DNA from: Candidatus Electronema aureum | GTDB lineage: Bacteria > Desulfobacterota > Desulfobulbia > Desulfobulbales > Desulfobulbaceae | Length of the DNA stretch: 32,000 bases | Assembly (NCBI GenBank): GCA_004284765.1 | Contig: NQJD01000020.1 | Location: 14,014-46,013 of the forward strand | Direction: 5' to 3' | Part shown: positions 2,995-31,848 of the stretch, in pieces | Layout: each line of letters starts with the position of its first letter | Position numbering within the stretch: position 1 is the stretch's first letter | Translations under genes and position numbers: made by a program | The notes under the pieces: model-generated | What the model saw: the letters and a program-made list of their open reading frames with translations, nothing else | Database searches by the model: none | Told to the model about the DNA's origin: nothing

Positions 2995-3204
2995 GATAGA
3001 ATATCTCGATGTTCTGAAAACAGACTGCGCAGGGCCAGCACCCTGAACCCGCGCCAAGGCGGCGCAGGCTGTGCAGCCGAAAAAAGTATTGATATAAGAA
3101 AAAAAGCGGTTTTGCAAAGCAATTCTGCTTTTACTTGATCATTTCTTTAGGAGAGAGGCCAAGAACAGTTTTTGCCTTCTGACCAGCAGCGCGGATGGCT
3201 TATC

Positions 3205-4848
3205 TTATTGCTCCAAACTACTGAGGCCTTTTTTCAGGCAAAAATAGGAGGCAAGACCGCCAATCAGGGCGATAAGCACCAAGGTGCCTATTGAGAGCAA
3301 CAAAGCCAACGAATCGATCTGACCACCACGTAGCCAGAAGCGCAGCAGGCGATAATTGCCGCTGAAGCCGATGACTAACATCAGCAGTTCCATTGCCAAG
3401 CTGACGAACATGAAGAGCATCATGCCGAAACTGCCTTGCGCAGCGGTCCGGCTTTCAATCTTAAAATCAGCGTACATCGCCCCGAAACCAAGAGCTAAGG
3501 CCAGCGCACTCCACGTAATCACTAAACTCACGCCGATAGACACCCACCACATCGGCCCGGTGATTTGTAGCAGGGCGTTAGAGGCAATGATCAGGAAGAG
3601 GATGACCAGCGTAAAGGGGATGCAATAAAAGAGATACTTGCAAAGCAGATATTTTGGCAAAGGCAGCGGCGAAGAACGGATGGCAGCAAAGGCCATGCCT
3701 TCGGCACCGATGGAAGGATAGACGAAACGAGCTGCGAGCGAGGTTGCTAAGAAACCAGCCAAGCCGATATTGGCAAAGGCAATCAGGTTGGCGAGATATT
3801 CGGTGGGCATGGGCGAGCGGTCAAGGGGCAGGGCCTTGAAGTTGTACAAATATACCACAATCAGCGCACCGACCAGAAAGAGCTGCGACCACTCGGCTGA
3901 ATCGCGGAGAAAAAGCTTTGCCTCTTTATGAAAAATGCGGAGCAAAGGCGAGGGACGGTAGTCTTTGCCACCAAAAGTGCGCGAGCCGCCAAAGGATTCC
4001 TGCGCTTTGCTGAAACCGTCGAAGAAGAATTTTTTCATCAGCCATTCCCCGACCCAGAAAAGAATCAACGGAGTGAGCAAAAGCAACCCAGCAGCTAACC
4101 AGTCAACCGTCTGATCTTGGAGATAGCCGCCAAGGAGTAGATTAGCCCAAGAGGGCGGCAGCAGAGCAGAGCCGGGGGTTTGGAGGTTAGAGAGGTAATC
4201 AACAAAGTCGGGGAACTTTTCCGGGTCAGCTAAATCCTCCGGCTTCAGCAGGCGGATGACCAAATAGAGCAGAATACCAAAGAGCAACGACAGATACACC
4301 GCGATATCTTTGGTCTGCTTGGCTGGGAAGAGCCTAACCAGTAAAATCGTTGCGCCGAGACCGATGCCGCTGGCAGTCAGAGCGGTGCTGAGAACGGCAA
4401 GCAGCACAAGCAGATGATAGAACCATCCAGCGGCAAAGACCGTGCCGTAAGCGCCGAAGATCGGCAGCGAAAAAATGACCATCATCCACGAGGTATAGAG
4501 GAACGAGGTCACAAAGCGCATACGAAAGAGCTGCTCTTCTTTGACCGGTGCGCTACACAGGATTTCATTATCCGAAGAAAGATAGAGCGACGATACTGCC
4601 GAAACCATTGATGAAAAAATCAGCATGGCGAACATAATCATCCAAGCCATCTGAAATATCTTCAAGCTGAGGATGATGCCCAGCTCGCTCTGGCTGTGGA
4701 AATAACTAATCGTCCGCAGACTGATCAAATAGAGCGCAACAAAGAGAACTGCGCCGAAGCCAAGTACAGCGGCAGTACGCAGGGAAATCCGACTGCCTCG
4801 AAAGAAGCGGTTGCGGATGCTGAAAAGGAAGGGGCGGAAGAGAAGCAT
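3205..4848 (-). CDS. polytopic integral membrane protein, 547 aa; putative permease partner of the upstream ABC ATPase
   Basis: Hydrophobic segments run throughout the protein, at least 10 putative transmembrane helices by eye. The ATG start is preceded by AAGG. It is the last gene of the same-strand operon that contains the ABC ATPase. No specific family motif was recognised. Confidence 0.5.
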   Translation of the reverse strand: MLLFRPFLFSIRNRFFRGSRISLRTAAVLGFGAVLFVALYLISLRTISYFHSQSELGIILSLKIFQMAWMIMFAMLIFSSMVSAVSSLYLSSDNEILCSAPVKEEQLFRMRFVTSFLYTSWMMVIFSLPIFGAYGTVFAAGWFYHLLVLLAVLSTALTASGIGLGATILLVRLFPAKQTKDIAVYLSLLFGILLYLVIRLLKPEDLADPEKFPDFVDYLSNLQTPGSALLPPSWANLLLGGYLQDQTVDWLAAGLLLLTPLILFWVGEWLMKKFFFDGFSKAQESFGGSRTFGGKDYRPSPLLRIFHKEAKLFLRDSAEWSQLFLVGALIVVYLYNFKALPLDRSPMPTEYLANLIAFANIGLAGFLATSLAARFVYPSIGAEGMAFAAIRSSPLPLPKYLLCKYLFYCIPFTLVILFLIIASNALLQITGPMWWVSIGVSLVITWSALALALGFGAMYADFKIESRTAAQGSFGMMLFMFVSLAMELLMLVIGFSGNYRLLRFWLRGGQIDSLALLLSIGTLVLIALIGGLASYFCLKKGLSSLEQ

Positions 4849-4913
4849 AGTGCCTTGTCGCCTGTTTTGGGTTGATATTCTCCAGTCTTATTCCAACCTG
4901 CCGGAGCGGATAG

Positions 4914-5169
4914 CTTACTTTCCCTGCGGCAAAGTCGCCTTGCTTTGCCATAAAGTCGGTTTACTTTGTCACAAAGCAAGCCTGCTTTATCACGGAGCAC
5001 ACCTGATACGTCTCAAAGAAGACCTACTTTATCGTAAAGCAAGTCTTCTTTGTTGTAAAGTAAGTCTGCTTTGTTGCAAAGAACACCTACTTTGTCACAG
5101 AGCAAACCTGACGCACCTCAAAGTAGACCTGCTTTACGGCAAAGAAAGCCTACTTTTACACAGGCAAAG
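4914..5169. repeat. tandem array of 12 imperfect 21-bp units (the first unit is 25 bp); consensus about CCTRCTTTRYNRYAAAGNAAG with a CTTT-N5-AAAG inverted core
   Basis: Units start at 4914, 4939, 4960, 4981, 5002, 5023, 5044, 5065, 5086, 5107, 5128 and 5149. An example is tttaCTTTgtcacAAAGcaag, where CTTTGTCACAAAG (4964-4976) is a perfect 13-bp palindrome. There are no spacers between units. Confidence 0.9.
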
Positions 5170-6001
5170 CCGGATTAAGCAACTTTAACACCGCGATTTC
5201 CGGGTAGCAGTTAAAGCGCACCGGATAAATAGCCCAACCTATGCCTCGGCTGATAAAGAGTTTGGTTTTCTCGGTGATAATCAGGCCACTCGAATAGTGC
5301 TTGTTCTGCACAGGCAGCACGGGCGGGCCAAAAAAAGGCAGCACTATCTGCCCGCCGTGTGTATGGCCGCTTACCACCAGTGAAAGCGGCGTTTTGAACG
5401 ATGTATCCACTGAGTCGGGGTTATGAGCGAGGAGAATCCGGCATTCGTTTTCCTCTGAATTGGCAAAGGCTTGGTCGATCTTCAATTGATCTTCCCAAAG
5501 ATCGCCTCCACCGCCAAGGACGAGCCGTTCCTGGCCCCGTTCAATCACTTTGCGCTGATGACGAAGATTCTGCCCGCTCCGTTCCAGCCAGTAGAGGGAA
5601 CGTTCCGTGTCTGCCGAATGATCATGATTGCCTAAGACCGAGAATACGCCGTGCCGCGCTTGCAGCTGCATCAAGATTGGCCAGACCTGATCAATCTCTG
5701 CCGTGGTGTTTCTTTTATGCACATAATCGCCAGTGCAAAATATGGCATCAGGACGCAGGGCATTGGTTCGTTCCACTACCTTTTGAATAAAGGCGGCAGA
5801 AACGAACCGACCGAGATGCAGATCAGTCAGATGGGCAATTGTGAACCCGTGAAAGGAAGGCGGCAAATTGGCAATTGAAATCTGGTAGCGGTTGACGAGA
5901 ACAATGTTTCGTTCAATGAAGACCGTGTAGCTGCCTGCCAAGGCAGTAGCAAGGCCATAGGCAGCCAGTCGGAGCACGGCCCTGCGACTAATGCCACTCA
6001 C
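5156..6001 (-). CDS. calcineurin-like metallophosphoesterase with a twin-arginine-type N-terminus (YaeI-like)
   Basis: It has the metallophosphoesterase motifs LTDLHLG, CTGDYVH, GNHDH and GHTHGGQ. The N-terminus, MSGISRRAVLRLAAYGLATALAG, looks like a Tat signal or signal anchor. Its GTG start overlaps the ATPase stop codon (GTGA, 5998-6001). Confidence 0.8.
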   Translation of the reverse strand: MSGISRRAVLRLAAYGLATALAGSYTVFIERNIVLVNRYQISIANLPPSFHGFTIAHLTDLHLGRFVSAAFIQKVVERTNALRPDAIFCTGDYVHKRNTTAEIDQVWPILMQLQARHGVFSVLGNHDHSADTERSLYWLERSGQNLRHQRKVIERGQERLVLGGGGDLWEDQLKIDQAFANSEENECRILLAHNPDSVDTSFKTPLSLVVSGHTHGGQIVLPFFGPPVLPVQNKHYSSGLIITEKTKLFISRGIGWAIYPVRFNCYPEIAVLKLLNPALPV

Positions 6002-6774
6002 GCGCTTTTCAATGCCTCAATCACCTGCCGCATCTCCCAAGCACCGGTTAGCTCCAGGAAGATATCCTCCAGATTAAGGCTCTGATCTGCCTTGCCCGCC
6101 TGGTTGCGCAGTTCCTCCATCGTGCCGATGACACGTAGGGTGCCATTGGTGATGATGGCGATCCGACGGCAGAGTTCTTCCGCAATTTCTAACGAGTGTG
6201 TTGAAAGAAAGATCGCCGTACCCGCCGCAGCCTTTTGCTTAAACAGTTCTTTAACAATGCGGGCTGATTTAGGATCAAGGCCGACCATTGGTTCGTCAAT
6301 GATCATCAGCGGTTGGTCAAGCATCAGCACTGAAGTCATGATCAGCTTTTGGCGCATCCCGTGCGAATAGCTCTCAATCAGATGATCCTGCCACTTGCCG
6401 AGATCAAAGATATCTAAATAGTTCTGCGATTCCGCACTGAATCGCTGCTCCGGGAGCTGATAAAGGCTGGCGATGAACTTCAGATACTCGCTGCCGGTCA
6501 GTTTTTCAAACAGCCAAGGCCGGTCAGGGACGTAGCCGGTGTCCTGTTTGCAAGCAAGAGGCTGTTCAATCAGCGAATGACCGTTGATCAGCACTGTGCC
6601 GCTATCCGGTTGTAGCAGCCCGGCCAGTATCTTGATCGTCGTGGTCTTGCCTGCGCCGTTTGGGCCAAGGAAACCGAAGATTTCCCCGGCAGCAACTTCA
6701 AGACTGATATCGTTGACAGCGGTGAAGTCAGCGAACGATTTGCACAGATTGTTTATTTGTAGGATGGGGTTCAT
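5998..6774 (-). CDS. ABC transporter ATP-binding protein
   Basis: It has Walker A (GPNGAGKTT), a signature-like YSHGMRQKL, Walker B (LMIIDEP) and an H-loop (LSTHS). Confidence 0.9.
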   Translation of the reverse strand: MNPILQINNLCKSFADFTAVNDISLEVAAGEIFGFLGPNGAGKTTTIKILAGLLQPDSGTVLINGHSLIEQPLACKQDTGYVPDRPWLFEKLTGSEYLKFIASLYQLPEQRFSAESQNYLDIFDLGKWQDHLIESYSHGMRQKLIMTSVLMLDQPLMIIDEPMVGLDPKSARIVKELFKQKAAAGTAIFLSTHSLEIAEELCRRIAIITNGTLRVIGTMEELRNQAGKADQSLNLEDIFLELTGAWEMRQVIEALKSA

Positions 6775-11031: not shown

Positions 11032-11073
11032 GATCAGACCTCAGAGAAATGGTTGCAGGGCGAGACAGAACCT

Positions 11074-11140
11074 CTGTAGGGGCAGGCCCCAGTGCCTGTC
11101 CTGGCTGCTGTTGGGCAACCACAGGGGGTTGCCCCTACAG
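11074..11140. repeat. two inverted copies of a roughly 28-bp REP-like hairpin unit (CTGTAGGGGCA...)
   Basis: The left copy is CTGTAGGGGCAGGCCCCAGTGCCTGTCC. The reverse complement of the right copy is CTGTAGGGGCAACCCCCTGTGGTTGCCC. The outer 11 bp are identical. Each copy folds on its own (GGCAGGC/GCCTGTC versus GGGCAACC/GGTTGCCC). The pair lies 43-109 nt upstream of the Aas-like start codon. Confidence 0.8.
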
Positions 11141-11227
11141 CGCATTGCGAAATACGCATCCAGCGATGCGCGGAACCGGTCTCAAAACCGGATGAACGGC
11201 TCCGGCGGGCCGTTGAACTGATCCCTT

Positions 11228-11267
11228 GATACCGATGAACAGCACCTCGCATCTGTTCAACGGTATC
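11228..11267. other. long hairpin or palindrome in the metF / Aas-like intergenic region
   Basis: The sequence is GATACCGaTGAACAG-cacctcgcat-CTGTTCAaCGGTATC, a 14-bp stem with one A-A mismatch. A T5 run (11278-11282) follows on the plus strand only, 10 nt after the stem. Confidence 0.5.
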
Positions 11268-11354
11268 TTGCACTCTGTTTTTCGGATTGCCGTGGCGGTT
11301 CAGCGGCAGTCGTGCTGGAAAGAAGCAAGGGCAGGCGCAGAAATTTGCCTCTGC

Positions 11355-12983: not shown

Positions 12984-13059
<76 letters not shown>

Positions 13060-22858: not shown

Positions 22859-23037
22859 AGCAAGTTTCCCTGCGCTGTTTGTGATCGACAGAGTATTGAG
22901 CCAACTCTCTTTGATAGGGCAGCTCCTATTCTGCTGGACTATGGAAAACTTTATTGATTTCCAGACGACAGCATGGCGCGCCCACCTATTTCGATAGGTT
23001 TAATCATTCTGTTGACACGGCAGTGCGGGGATTTTTT
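22859..23037 (+). ncRNA. candidate structured sRNA of about 179 nt, 6S-RNA-like by position and architecture
   Basis: A promoter-like TTGCTT (22824-22829), 17-nt spacer and TATAGA (22847-22852) precede it. Positions 22868-22894 pair with 23006-23030 in 25 bp (19 Watson-Crick, 6 G-U, two 1-nt bulges), enclosing 111 nt. The helix is followed directly by ATTTTTT. The G-U pairs make the helix specific to the plus strand. The interior can form a rod with a large internal loop of about 18 by 16 nt. zapA-ssrS adjacency is known from E. coli. Confidence 0.4.
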
Positions 23038-23271
23038 ACAGCCGAAACGGTGTTGAGTACGTAAGCCTGACAGAATCAGGTCTATCATCAACCCTGTTGT
23101 AAAAATCCCTTCCCTTCTAACCCGATGCGGCAGCGTCCTGCCGTGTTATCCTGCATCTCCGCTTTTCATCGTCCCTTCTGTAGCAGCAGAAATGTATTTC
23201 TTCATTCCATTATCCGCAGTTATTTCCGTAAACGGAGAAGCTGCTGCAATTATATCTTAGGTTATGCAATT

Positions 23272-24831
23272 ATGAACGGGACAACAGCATTACTGTTTGC
23301 CCTGACCTTGGCCGTAGGAGCTGGGGTTGGTTTTTTTCTCCGAAAGAAGTTAATTGAAGGCAATCAGGCGGATATTGAGAAACAGCGTCTGCTGATTATT
23401 GAAAACGCCATTCATGAAGCCGAGCAGATCAAGAAAGAAAAACTGCTCCAAGTGAAAGAAGAAATCTATCAGTCTAAAAACGAGGCTGAACTGGAGATTA
23501 AAAATTCTCGAAAAAATATTGAAAACGAGCAGCGGCGATTAGAGCGAAAATTAGACAAAGTCCATGAGGAGCTGAATGATCTCAAGGACAAGGAAACTGA
23601 TCTCACTTCCCGCGAAAGAAAGTTGACAGCTAAAGAGCAGACTGTTGTTGAGCGGGAAAACGAGGCAAAATTGCTGATTGTCGAGCAGCAGCAGAAATTG
23701 GAAAAGATTGCCGGAGTCAGTTGTGATGAGGCCAAAAGGCTGCTGATAGAGTCAATTGAAAGCGAAGCCCGGATGGATGCTGCTAAACGATTGACAAGGA
23801 TTGAGAATGAAATGAAACTGGAGGCTGATCGCAAGGGGAAAAATATTCTTGCTTTGGCCATTGCCCGTTATGCCGGTGATTATGTTGCGGATAAAACCGT
23901 TTCTATGGTACCTTTGCCTAATGATGAAATGAAAGGGCGAATTATCGGCAGAGAAGGACGCAACATCCGAGCGATTGAGGCAGCGACTGGTATTGATATT
24001 ATCATCGACGACACCCCAGAAGCGGTTATTCTCTCCGGCTTTAACCCGATTCGGCGAGAAATAGCTCGTCAGTCGCTGCTTCAGCTTATTTCTGATGGTA
24101 GAATACATCCGGCCCGGATTGAAGAAGTGGTGGCCAAAGTCACGCACGATTTGGATGTAGAAATTAAAGAGGCCGGTGAAAAAGCCACCTTTGATGTCGG
24201 CGTACACGGGATGCACGTTGATTTAATCAATTTAATCGGGCGGCTGAAGTACCGATCCAGCTACGGCCAGAACATTCTTCAGCATTCCTTGGAAGTGGCC
24301 TTTCTCTGTGGAGTCATGGCGGCAGAGCTGGGCATCGATGTGAAAAAGGCCAAACGAGCCGGGCTGTTGCATGATATCGGTAAAGCGGTGGATCACGAGG
24401 TGGAAGGCTCCCATGCCGTTATCGGTCGTGATTTAGCAAAAAAATACGGCGAGCGTGAAGATATTGTTTACGCCATCGGTGCCCATCATGAGGATCAGCC
24501 GCCGCAGAGCGTGCTGGATGTGCTGGTGCAGTCCGCAGATGCCCTTTCTGGTGCCCGACCTGGCGCACGAAAAGAGATGCTGCAAAGCTATGTTAAACGC
24601 TTAGAAGATTTAGAAAAGATCGCTAACGCTTTTGCGGGTGTGGAGAAATCTTACGCGGTACAGGCCGGACGCGATCTGCGAATTATTGTCAACAGTCAGC
24701 AGGTAGGCGATGACGCAGCAACCCTGATGAGCCGCGACATTGCCAAGGCGATTGAGGAGCAGCTGACCTATCCCGGCCAGATTCGGGTTACGGTGATTCG
24801 GGAAACGAGGGCGGTGGAATATGCAAAATAA
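23272..24831 (+). CDS. rny: ribonuclease Y
   Basis: It has an N-terminal transmembrane helix ([23 protein letters not shown]), a long E/K coiled coil, a KH domain ([15 protein letters not shown]) and an HD domain ([12 protein letters not shown]). At 519 aa from the ATG at 23272, it is a typical length. The longer frame in the ORF track is upstream non-coding sequence. Confidence 0.9.
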
Positions 24832-30621: not shown

Positions 30622-31848
30622 TCAGTTGCGCAGAAGGAGGAAGTTGATAGCAGGCAGCGCGGCACTAACCGGCCCACCGAAGACATAGGCAGAGCCTTTG
30701 GCACTGTCATCGCCATACGCTCCGACGACCACCGTATCCCCATCCACGGCCACGGAAGAGCCGAAATAGTCATCAGCGCCTCCGTCAGCGGCGACCAGCT
30801 TGCTTTGCTGGTTCCATGTGCTGCCCGTGCAAGTAAAGACGTATGCCGCGCCTTTGCTGGTGTCATTGTTAGAAGCCCCGACAACCACCGTGTCCCCATC
30901 CACCGATACAGAATAACCAAACCAGTCAACCTCACTCCCGTCAGTGGCGGTTAGCTTTGGCTGCTGCTGCGTCCACACACCACTCGTGCGAGTAAAGACA
31001 TACGCCGCGCCTTTCTCAGTGTCATTACCGGAAGCACCGATGATCGCTGTGTCTCCATCCACTGACACAGAAGAGCCGAAATAGTCATCAGCGGCCCCGT
31101 CTGCGGCAATCAGCTTCTGCTGCTGGCTCCACACACTGCCCGTGCGGGTAAAGACGTATGCCGCGCCTTTTCTGCTGTCATTGCCGGAAGCACCGATGAT
31201 CGCTGTGTCTCCGGCCAGTGACACGGATGTGCCGAAGTAGTCATGAGTAGCCCCGTCATTATCGGTTAGCTTTGGCTGCTCGCTCCACACACCATTGGTA
31301 CGGGTAAAGACATACGCCACGCCTTTACCGCTGTCATTGCCGTGCGCCCCGATGATTGCTGTGTCGCCATCCACTGACACAGAAGAGCCGAAAAGGTCAT
31401 CAGCAACCCCGTCAGTGGCGATCAGCTTCTTCTGCTGGCTCCAGCTACCGCCCGCAGCCCGGACAAACACATAGGCCGAGCCGGAATCAGTGCCCTTGTC
31501 GTCATCGTGGCATGCCCCGATGATTGCCATGTCCCCGGACACAGCCACACTGACACCGAACTCGTCGCCAGCGGCCCCGTCATCGGCGGTCAGCTTCTGC
31601 TGGCTCCAGCTGCCGTCCACAGCCCGGGTAAAAATATAGACCGCCCCTTTCCCACCATCATCGTAGTGTGCCCCGATGACTGCCGTGTCCCCGGACACCG
31701 ACACGGAAGAGCCAAACTCCTCGCCATCGGCCCCGTCCCCTGTCAGCAGCTTCTTCGCCGTGGTCGGGTCAATGGCGGCCTGCGCTTGTCCGACCGCCAG
31801 CACGAGCAGCGCGGCCAAGAACAGCAGTCCCTTCAACGTTGTTTTCAT
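30622..31848 (-). CDS. secreted FG-GAP-repeat protein, predicted seven-blade beta-propeller
   Basis: It has a signal peptide (MKTTLKGLLFLAALLVLAVGQAQA) followed by seven units of about 52 aa, of the form FGxSVSVDGDTAIIGAxxxDxxKGAAYVFTRxxxxWxQQxKLxAxDGAxDDx. The underlying DNA repeats are near-identical in places; for example, ggaagcaccgatgatcgctgtgtctcc occurs at both 31029 and 31184. An AAGGAGG RBS is present. Confidence 0.8.
   Translation of the reverse strand: MKTTLKGLLFLAALLVLAVGQAQAAIDPTTAKKLLTGDGADGEEFGSSVSVSGDTAVIGAHYDDGGKGAVYIFTRAVDGSWSQQKLTADDGAAGDEFGVSVAVSGDMAIIGACHDDDKGTDSGSAYVFVRAAGGSWSQQKKLIATDGVADDLFGSSVSVDGDTAIIGAHGNDSGKGVAYVFTRTNGVWSEQPKLTDNDGATHDYFGTSVSLAGDTAIIGASGNDSRKGAAYVFTRTGSVWSQQQKLIAADGAADDYFGSSVSVDGDTAIIGASGNDTEKGAAYVFTRTSGVWTQQQPKLTATDGSEVDWFGYSVSVDGDTVVVGASNNDTSKGAAYVFTCTGSTWNQQSKLVAADGGADDYFGSSVAVDGDTVVVGAYGDDSAKGSAYVFGGPVSAALPAINFLLLRN

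Follow-up and report, generated by a model that had tools for sequence, protein, structure and literature searches.

A strictly phased array of 21-bp dyad-symmetric repeats between a metallophosphoesterase and an ABC permease gene of Candidatus Electronema aureum

The window analysed here, which is the whole stretch of 32,000 nucleotides from Candidatus Electronema aureum, carries on its minus strand, in this order, genes for an acyltransferase/PP-binding/AMP-binding protein, a transglutaminase-like protein, an ABC ATPase and a metallophosphoesterase, followed by a tandem repeat array and by the genes for a PF16949 permease and an ornithine carbamoyltransferase. The closest named homologues of the phosphoesterase, with 75–88% identity, are found in Candidatus Electronema and in "Desulfobulbus sp. 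F4/F5", in agreement with an origin from a cable bacterium; a megablast search of E. coli genomes gave no hit, which speaks against enterobacterial DNA. The rest of the window is of housekeeping nature, with 6S RNA, a tRNA, RNase Y, TyrRS, arginine synthesis, MTHFR, pilus ATPases and bactofilin; the 6S RNA gene (22864–23035, plus strand) immediately precedes that of RNase Y (23125–24831, plus strand), and the tRNA gene (12987–13059, minus strand) adjoins that of MTHFR. An earlier reading of this DNA, made from its sequence only, had singled out a 307-bp gap among junctions that are otherwise of 11 nt or overlapping, and this description was accurate: the gap that separates the stop of the phosphoesterase gene from the start of the permease gene covers 4849–5155 (307 bp), and the other junctions measure 11 nt and a 4-nt overlap. 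The features of the locus are as follows.

3205–4848, minus strand: ABC_tran_2 (PF16949) permease gene, downstream of the array
4849–4913, minus strand: non-repetitive 65-nt leader from the array to the permease ATG (promoter scan)
4914–5144, no strand: array proper, 11 units, each of an 8-bp spacer and a 13-bp dyad-symmetric core CTTTR-N3-YAAAG
4943–4955, no strand: perfect core CTTTGCCATAAAG (CTTT-N5-AAAG count)
4964–4976, no strand: perfect core CTTTGTCACAAAG, the best palindrome of the array, with 6-bp arms and a central base
5027–5039, no strand: perfect core CTTTATCGTAAAG (CTTT-N5-AAAG count and core folding)
5048–5060, no strand: perfect core CTTTGTTGTAAAG (CTTT-N5-AAAG count)
5069–5081, no strand: perfect core CTTTGTTGCAAAG (CTTT-N5-AAAG count)
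5132–5144, no strand: perfect core CTTTACGGCAAAG (CTTT-N5-AAAG count)
5145–5165, no strand: marginal 12th unit AAAGCCTACTTTTACACAGGC, overlapping the last codons and the stop (5156–5158) of the phosphoesterase gene
5156–6001, minus strand: metallophosphoesterase gene (PF00149), upstream of the array
5998–6774, minus strand: ABC ATPase gene, whose counterpart directly abuts the permease gene in distant relatives
4811–5188, plus strand: antisense 125-aa "heptad" ORF, rejected as a gene (stops, substitution pattern, no Pfam match)

The array had been described as twelve contiguous in-phase units, of which eleven hold. These occupy 4914–5144 as strictly in-phase 21-bp units: in a 21-nt register counted from 4914, AAAG (or GGAG/AGAG) ends at 4934, 4955 and so on up to 5144, and the phase slip is 0. 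The twelfth unit, which does contain the phosphoesterase stop codon as had been noted, is marginal, agreeing with the other units at just 6–15 of 21 positions, and is partly ancestral coding sequence, in which the phosphoesterase C-terminus NPALPV and the stop after it are common to relatives. Tandem Repeats Finder called a period of 21 at 4930–4976 and at 4964–5110, and the lag-21 identity reached 0.657 in the array against a window mean of 0.280 (sd 0.055), making this the sole strong 21-bp periodicity in the 32 kb, with every other segment at or below 0.45. The proposed palindromic core CTTT-N5-AAAG was verified as well. It occurs seven times in the 32-kb window, where 1.0 occurrence is expected, six of them inside the array, and a count of at least seven was reached by none of 100 shuffles of the window; the stricter form CTTTR-N3-YAAAG occurs six times against 0.17 expected, always inside the array. 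The perfect palindrome reported at 4964–4976 is indeed the best one present.

Despite this regularity, the units are far from identical to each other. The identity between them is just 53–63%, that is, about 40% of positions differ, CTTT is missing from two of them (4998–5018 and 5103–5123), and the first unit takes the form CTTT-N9-AAAG with a 4-nt spacer, its total still being 21 bp. Additionally, a weak higher-order period of 105 bp (five units) was detected, in which units i and i+5 are most alike. Since the two units lacking CTTT are exactly five apart, this likeness points to the past duplication of a 105-bp block. The array is old and degenerate, with its phase kept exactly across 11 units in spite of the divergence of about 40% between them. 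It does not have the structure of a CRISPR array, given that the units are contiguous and that the 8-bp "spacers" are themselves repeated rather than unique.

The comparison with related DNA showed that the locus is identical in two Logan assemblies, and that two further close relatives, a JGI contig (L003) and an ENA scaffold (L123) whose flanking proteins are 95–97% identical to those of the window, carry the array with 13 and 14 substitutions, respectively. A comparison of copy number between strains had been recommended, and it revealed the same number of units in the three close strains. The L123 scaffold, a metagenome scaffold of 47 kb, terminates inside the array (contig position 47302), which suggests that arrays of this kind can break short-read assemblies. 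On the other hand, neither five other Electronema-type loci nor 17 permease-orthologue loci have the array. In Ca. Electronema sp. V4, phosphoesterase and permease are 3 kb apart, with three genes of the opposite strand in between; in GCA_002413355 this place is taken by HetE-N, TPR and DUF29 genes; and in Ca. E. halotolerans, as in two other contigs, unrelated genes come after the phosphoesterase. The 17 metagenome loci, with permease orthologues of 33–89% amino acid identity, showed neither a 21-bp array nor an upstream phosphoesterase. In a relative with a 72%-identical permease orthologue (L142), the stop of the ABC ATPase gene (2220–2999) abuts the permease start (3001–4641), and a similar abutment was judged by eye in L139. 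Given that the ATPase abuts the permease in distant relatives, the ancestral order was likely ATPase then permease, with Electronema having a phosphoesterase gene and a variable segment in between, a segment that, among the loci compared, appears to be filled by the array in the lineage of the window only. The array is lineage-specific and situated at a rearrangement-prone junction, running from ABC ATPase through phosphoesterase and variable DNA to permease, and is not a conserved operon component; in this respect, its presentation as an integral element of the operon did not survive the comparison with the orthologous loci that lack it. Since the array is missing from other Electronema species, any function that it has would be either dispensable or recent. 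It marks a junction of variable content at which the permease has become separated from its ABC ATPase.

The substitutions that separate the close strains are unevenly distributed within the units. Compared with L123, the cores differ at 4 of 143 sites and the spacers at 10 of 88 (p = 0.011), while the third codon positions of three flanking genes accumulated 135 substitutions over 1071 sites. The core rate is therefore about five times below that of third codon positions (p = 1.3e-4), and that of the spacers is indistinguishable from it (p = 0.87). A similar split was obtained for L003, with 4 core and 8 spacer substitutions whose positions were mapped by hand, against an uneven local background in which third-position divergence is 7% in one flanking gene and 21% in the other. 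The five central bases (N5) of the cores are conserved between strains as well. The slow evolution of the cores, the fixed copy number and the exact phase indicate that the cores are maintained, which argues that they are probably under purifying selection and that the spacers drift, on small counts of 14 (L123) and 13 (L003) substitutions.

The sequence-only reading had not recognised a described repeat family, and in this it was mistaken, as the array appears to belong to the 20–21-nt tandem repeats of constant size and variable sequence treated in PMC8161180. In that article (Int J Mol Sci 2021), Subirana and Messeguer (citing J Bacteriol 202:e00229-20) describe "enigmatic" bacterial non-coding tandem repeats with a constant size of 20–21 or 52 nt and a variable sequence, for which they suggested, without evidence for either, small or sponge RNAs or else a protein that polymerises on DNA (PMC8161180). 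Their surveys were made on complete genomes and centred on Bacillus and Paenibacillus (PMC8161180). Later papers citing that work offer no function for these repeats. To our knowledge, cable bacteria lie outside these surveys. As far as its sequence tells, the array fits this class, understood as intergenic bacterial tandem repeats of variable sequence whose unit has a constant 20–23 nt: its period is 21 by three measures, within the 20–21 (up to 23) nt of the class; it has 11 solid units and a marginal one, where at least four head-to-tail copies define the class; it is non-coding, as judged from stops in L003, the lack of codon-position bias and the lack of a Pfam match; and its sequence and position are lineage-specific, being present in three close strains and absent from 5 + 17 loci. 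Like these repeats, it is intergenic and has a short conserved "signal" inside a variable unit, and arrays of the same length and different sequence occur in related genomes. However, with its between-unit identity of 53–63%, it is far more degenerate than the typical catalogued arrays. No mention of a dyad-symmetric CTTT-N5-AAAG core, of its recurrence across phyla, of selection on cores versus spacers or of a link to fn3 proteins was found in PMC8161180.

The search for further members of the class was performed on 185,579 species genomes with a single pattern, three CTTT-N5-AAAG cores at 21-bp spacing. Among the matches listed, more than 119 stretches carry this pattern, whereas about 0.004 would be expected at random by our own estimate. 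The listed arrays are genuine, with 3–24 units, several per genome and in both orientations; they share period and core, while the N5 and N8 parts vary between taxa. Most of those listed come from Bacteroidota, and the others from Planctomycetota, Verrucomicrobiota, Lentisphaerota, Acidobacteriota, Armatimonadota, Chloroflexota, Cyanobacteria and a few other taxa. They are mostly intergenic, with 29 in co-directional, 12 in divergent and 11 in convergent gaps, according to an ORF-based approximation. In 38 non-redundant units, both dyads extend beyond the imposed CTTT/AAAG, with complementarity of 58% at spacer pair 14–21, 47% at spacer pair 15–20 and 45% at core pair 5–9, where 25% is expected at random. 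Paired long 21-bp arrays with unlike units, adjoining or near each other, were observed in Planctomycetaceae MAGs (L027, 28–258 and 260–544; L063, 7065–7278 and 7563–7709), and in Prevotellaceae (L005, 352–420; L045, 2734–2790) 17–19 near-perfect units are followed by a GC-rich hairpin and a T run, resembling a terminator. A kinship between the Electronema unit and that of a Pyrinomonadaceae array (L059) was considered and rejected, as the identity of 16/21 is not significant in view of 8 fixed positions and about 100 comparisons (own estimate).

Closer to the window, the related Electronema DNA contains five more intergenic arrays with periods of 21–23 bp, roughly one per 20 kb seen, whose units differ from each other and from those of the one strong array in the 32 kb of the source genome. 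Each has its own palindrome, for example TTCGCA-AC-TGCGAA, AAAAGGC-AG-GCCTTTT or CCTCG-AG-CGAGG. Their positions are the following.

L124, 52–283: intergenic array
L124, 12848–12899: intergenic array
L128, 6041–6112: intergenic array
L131, 2515–2590: intergenic array
L131, 5578–5704: intergenic array

The clustering of genes neighbouring the class arrays yielded one artefact cluster, made up of translated repeats, one cluster of ABC ATPases that is due to chance and one family of proteins with a fibronectin-type (fn3) domain. The latter, found by clustering the ORFs next to arrays, adjoins an array in six loci from four phyla. Its members have 200–230 aa, with a helical N-terminal domain and a C-terminal fn3 domain, are 26–35% identical to each other and number at least 592, all annotated as hypothetical. 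Three further members were picked regardless of arrays, and each has a 21-bp array upstream, a strong one in L159 and in L165 and a degenerate one in L162. Hence, all nine loci, from four phyla, have a 21-bp array of 8–20 units that ends 90–370 nt upstream of the start, with differing unit sequences, such as GAACTTAACTTAGTTCGGCTT in L159. The fn3 genes are located as follows.

L018, 278–973: fn3 gene
L044, 505–1116: fn3 gene
L059, 230–841, minus strand: fn3 gene
L066, 5893–6528: fn3 gene
L088, 4160–4852, minus strand: fn3 gene
L101, 5310–5942: fn3 gene
L159, 2501–3112: fn3 gene
L162, 2501–3112: fn3 gene
L165, 2501–3193: fn3 gene

In L066, a promoter with 12/12 consensus (TTGACA-16-TATAAT) directly follows the array, and terminator-like hairpins lie downstream of the fn3 gene in L066 and L159. 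Regarding the protein itself, NCBIfam gave no match and PHROGs matched the fn3 domain only; likewise, the comparison of an AlphaFold model (pLDDT 80) with PDB and BFVD by Foldseek recovered the fn3 domain only and gave no hint of DNA binding. No fn3 homologue is encoded within the window. The module shows that at least some arrays of the 21-bp type have been kept as upstream elements over long evolutionary distances.

As far as can be judged from sequence comparison, the Electronema array is a real, non-coding element that appears to be under selection and is neither unique nor a conserved part of its operon. How it could act is a matter of ranking: a phased platform for protein on DNA is placed first, an RNA duplex or processing element second and a functionless satellite third. 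The preferred reading, to which we give slightly less than even credence, is that of a platform on which dyad-symmetric sites, set in helical phase, would be bound by a candidate dimeric DNA-binding protein. The array would then act at the level of DNA: cores that recur every two helical turns would all lie on the same face of the helix and could allow the cooperative loading of a dimeric DNA-binding or nucleoid-associated protein that tolerates sequence variation, and the resulting nucleoprotein stretch might set or insulate the transcription of the downstream permease relative to the upstream genes. A platform for dimeric protein on one face had already been suggested for this array, and that suggestion is retained for the exact phase and the symmetric half-sites, without the accompanying iteron or centromere label. 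In the cores, only purines occur at position 5 and only pyrimidines at position 9; nevertheless, the two do not covary, with 4 Watson–Crick pairs out of 8 against 4.25 expected (hand count of units), so that they look like two independently degenerate half-sites rather than like a base pair. An action on DNA is also favoured by the occurrence of class arrays in divergent and convergent as well as co-directional gaps, and by the fn3 loci, which put arrays upstream of genes and once beside a promoter. The sharing of period and core by class arrays that otherwise vary, the extension of both their dyads and the equal folding of their two strands in co-directional gaps point the same way, as do, independently, the constant size with variable sequence and the polymerising protein put forward in PMC8161180. 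Against it, no candidate binding protein emerged and no regulon signal was seen; the half-site model does not require the N5 conservation observed between strains; and other Electronema arrays have a period of 23 bp, which is a non-integral number of helical turns. Concerning a regulon, the remainder of the 32-kb window has no CTTTR-N3-YAAAG outside the array, and some 95 kb of related Electronema-type DNA contain a single one, a rarity that gives no sign of a regulon.

A comparable architecture is known from ribbon-helix-helix operator arrays, such as the metboxes of MetJ and the heptads of the omega protein, which have dyads at the centre of each unit as well as at the junction of units and are bound cooperatively. 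The Electronema array resembles them in having tandem units with dyads at centre and junction. However, ribbon-helix-helix arrays have a period of 7–8 bp and few copies and are located in the promoters of a defined regulon, whereas the period here is 21 bp, the units number 11–12 and there is no sign of a regulon.

A broader form of the platform reading, rather unlikely in our estimation, is that arrays of dyad-symmetric units of about 21 bp constitute a cross-phylum, cis-acting nucleoprotein or promoter-upstream element that functions by helical phase and not by sequence. The Electronema array would then represent a selected instance of it, since its cores appear to be under purifying selection. 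If this were true, the module of array, promoter and fn3 gene present in Acidobacteriota, Bacteroidota, Lentisphaerota and Verrucomicrobiota would offer a tractable experimental entry point. The class has been without a function since its description in 2020, and the present array makes it testable. What is new here comprises the selected cores with drifting spacers, the CTTT-N5-AAAG/21-bp design in many phyla and the fn3 family with its upstream array; through the selection on cores, the recurring design and the fn3 link, what reads such arrays becomes a testable question.

An RNA element is possible, if somewhat less likely than the platform. It would require that the array be co-transcribed on the minus strand with its flanks, with units pairing into long imperfect duplexes that would act like REP/BIME or RNase III sites, either stabilising the upstream message or cleaving it and uncoupling it from the permease message. 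Neither the scan nor inspection by eye revealed a sigma-70-like promoter in the 65-nt leader (4849–4913), and no convincing terminator or promoter separating the array-flanking genes was found by scan; a 6-pair hairpin followed by a T-rich tail (5165–5148, minus strand) is a weak terminator-like site, with one stem base different in L003. As no promoter-like site lies between array and permease, the array is probably transcribed, which keeps an action at the RNA level open. Each unit is nearly self-complementary, so that neighbouring or distant units can pair, and the near-palindromic units make the gap fold far better than shuffles on both strands, with –129.8 kcal/mol (z = –6.3) for the sense strand versus –109.8 kcal/mol (z = –5.7) for the antisense. 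The fold still amounts to –101 kcal/mol when pairs are restricted to a 45-nt span, because whole units pair with their neighbours, and to –52 kcal/mol at a 20-nt span. Moreover, all five of the clearly intergenic 21–23-bp arrays in related Electronema DNA carry short palindromes and sit between co-directional genes wherever both flanks are visible, and some Bacteroidota arrays directly precede a terminator-like hairpin.

These observations are counterbalanced by several others. The string of twelve mini-hairpins that had been imagined for the transcript finds little correspondence in the predicted fold, as single core hairpins are marginal and only 2 of 11 cores form the proposed stem at 37 °C, the predicted stability coming almost wholly from pairing between neighbouring or distant units. 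The sole variable stem position shows no covariation in the hand count, and the mismatches, 16 G–U against 11 A–C (11 against 16 when taken as G–T against A–C), reveal no significant strand asymmetry. Equally, no sense-strand preference was seen in 24 co-directional class arrays (10 vs 14, p = 0.54). RNA structure leaves the exact 21-nt phase without a reason, and the spacer substitutions between strains, assessed by eye, break pairing more than they preserve it. Finally, no Rfam family matched the array at gathering score, and a permissive search returned only noise in the form of miRNA-like hairpins (E of at least 0.45). The REP/BIME elements of Enterobacteria and Pseudomonas, short imperfect palindromes in transcribed operon gaps that can cluster, influence the stability of mRNAs and are bound by nucleoid or topology proteins; the copies of one REP family are scattered, often alternate in orientation and are linked to RAYT transposases. 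The Electronema array likewise consists of short imperfect palindromes in an operon gap, but its units are direct instead of alternating and strictly phased at 21 bp, and its motif does not occur elsewhere in the window.

The next alternative, a functionless satellite that arose by slippage or duplication, including that of the five-unit 105-bp block, at a recombination-prone junction and that is tolerated because the spot is non-essential, is less likely still. In its favour, the array is lineage-specific, with unrelated genes at the same position in other species; strong unit divergence is combined with a 105-bp higher-order repeat; class arrays are found in every type of intergenic context; and the repeat class as such is without known function (PMC8161180). 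A satellite would nevertheless hardly be expected to have cores that evolve about five times more slowly than synonymous sites next to neutral spacers, a copy number that is constant among three strains, an exact phase despite unit divergence of about 40%, or counterparts that have been kept in front of orthologous genes in four phyla.

The two remaining readings are both highly improbable. Iterons and repeat-type centromeres, such as the parC of R1 and the 20-bp repeats of pSK41 parC, are phased direct repeats of about 20–22 bp along which many copies of a dimeric protein assemble on the same side of the helix. Taking the array as a partition centromere, or as an iteron origin of plasmid or ICE type, would account for the resemblance of tandem direct repeats of about 21 bp to iterons and to the pSK41 repeats. 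However, the context of the array is chromosomal, with genes of housekeeping type around it (arginine synthesis, MTHFR, 6S RNA, RNase Y, TyrRS), the annotated ORFs of the window include no Rep or Par family of Pfam, BLAST found no plasmid or phage similarity of the array, only four viral contigs carry the three-core pattern and class members occur many times per chromosome, so that the membership in this group that had been put forward is not supported. As regards coding, the plus-strand ORF 4811–5188, read as a Cys/His-rich heptad-repeat protein, keeps one frame open across the array in the window and in L123, but it was rejected as a gene because it contains two in-frame stops in L003, has no third-position bias (substitutions by codon position, counted by hand, of 4/6/4 against L123 and 6/3/4 against L003, whereas 37 of 43 in the flanking phosphoesterase gene fall at position 3 against L123), matches no Pfam family and was passed over by the gene callers, and because 93 arrays of the wider class have no frame that is consistently open, some being closed in all six. 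The array is hence non-coding and, for annotation, should be treated as a repeat region and not as a gene.

Two other repeat-rich segments were observed in the window. The gap between the MTHFR and acyltransferase genes (11032–11354) is structured too, with a fold z of –3.4 and a lag-21 identity of 0.44; it contains a 28-nt inverted repeat (11074–11101 and 11113–11140) and, at 11135–11260, about six differing small palindromes at 21-nt spacing, each with a GAAC end. At 30740–31443, tandem repeats of 156 and 315 bp lie within the gene of an FG-GAP repeat protein (30622–31848, minus strand) and are coding repeats.
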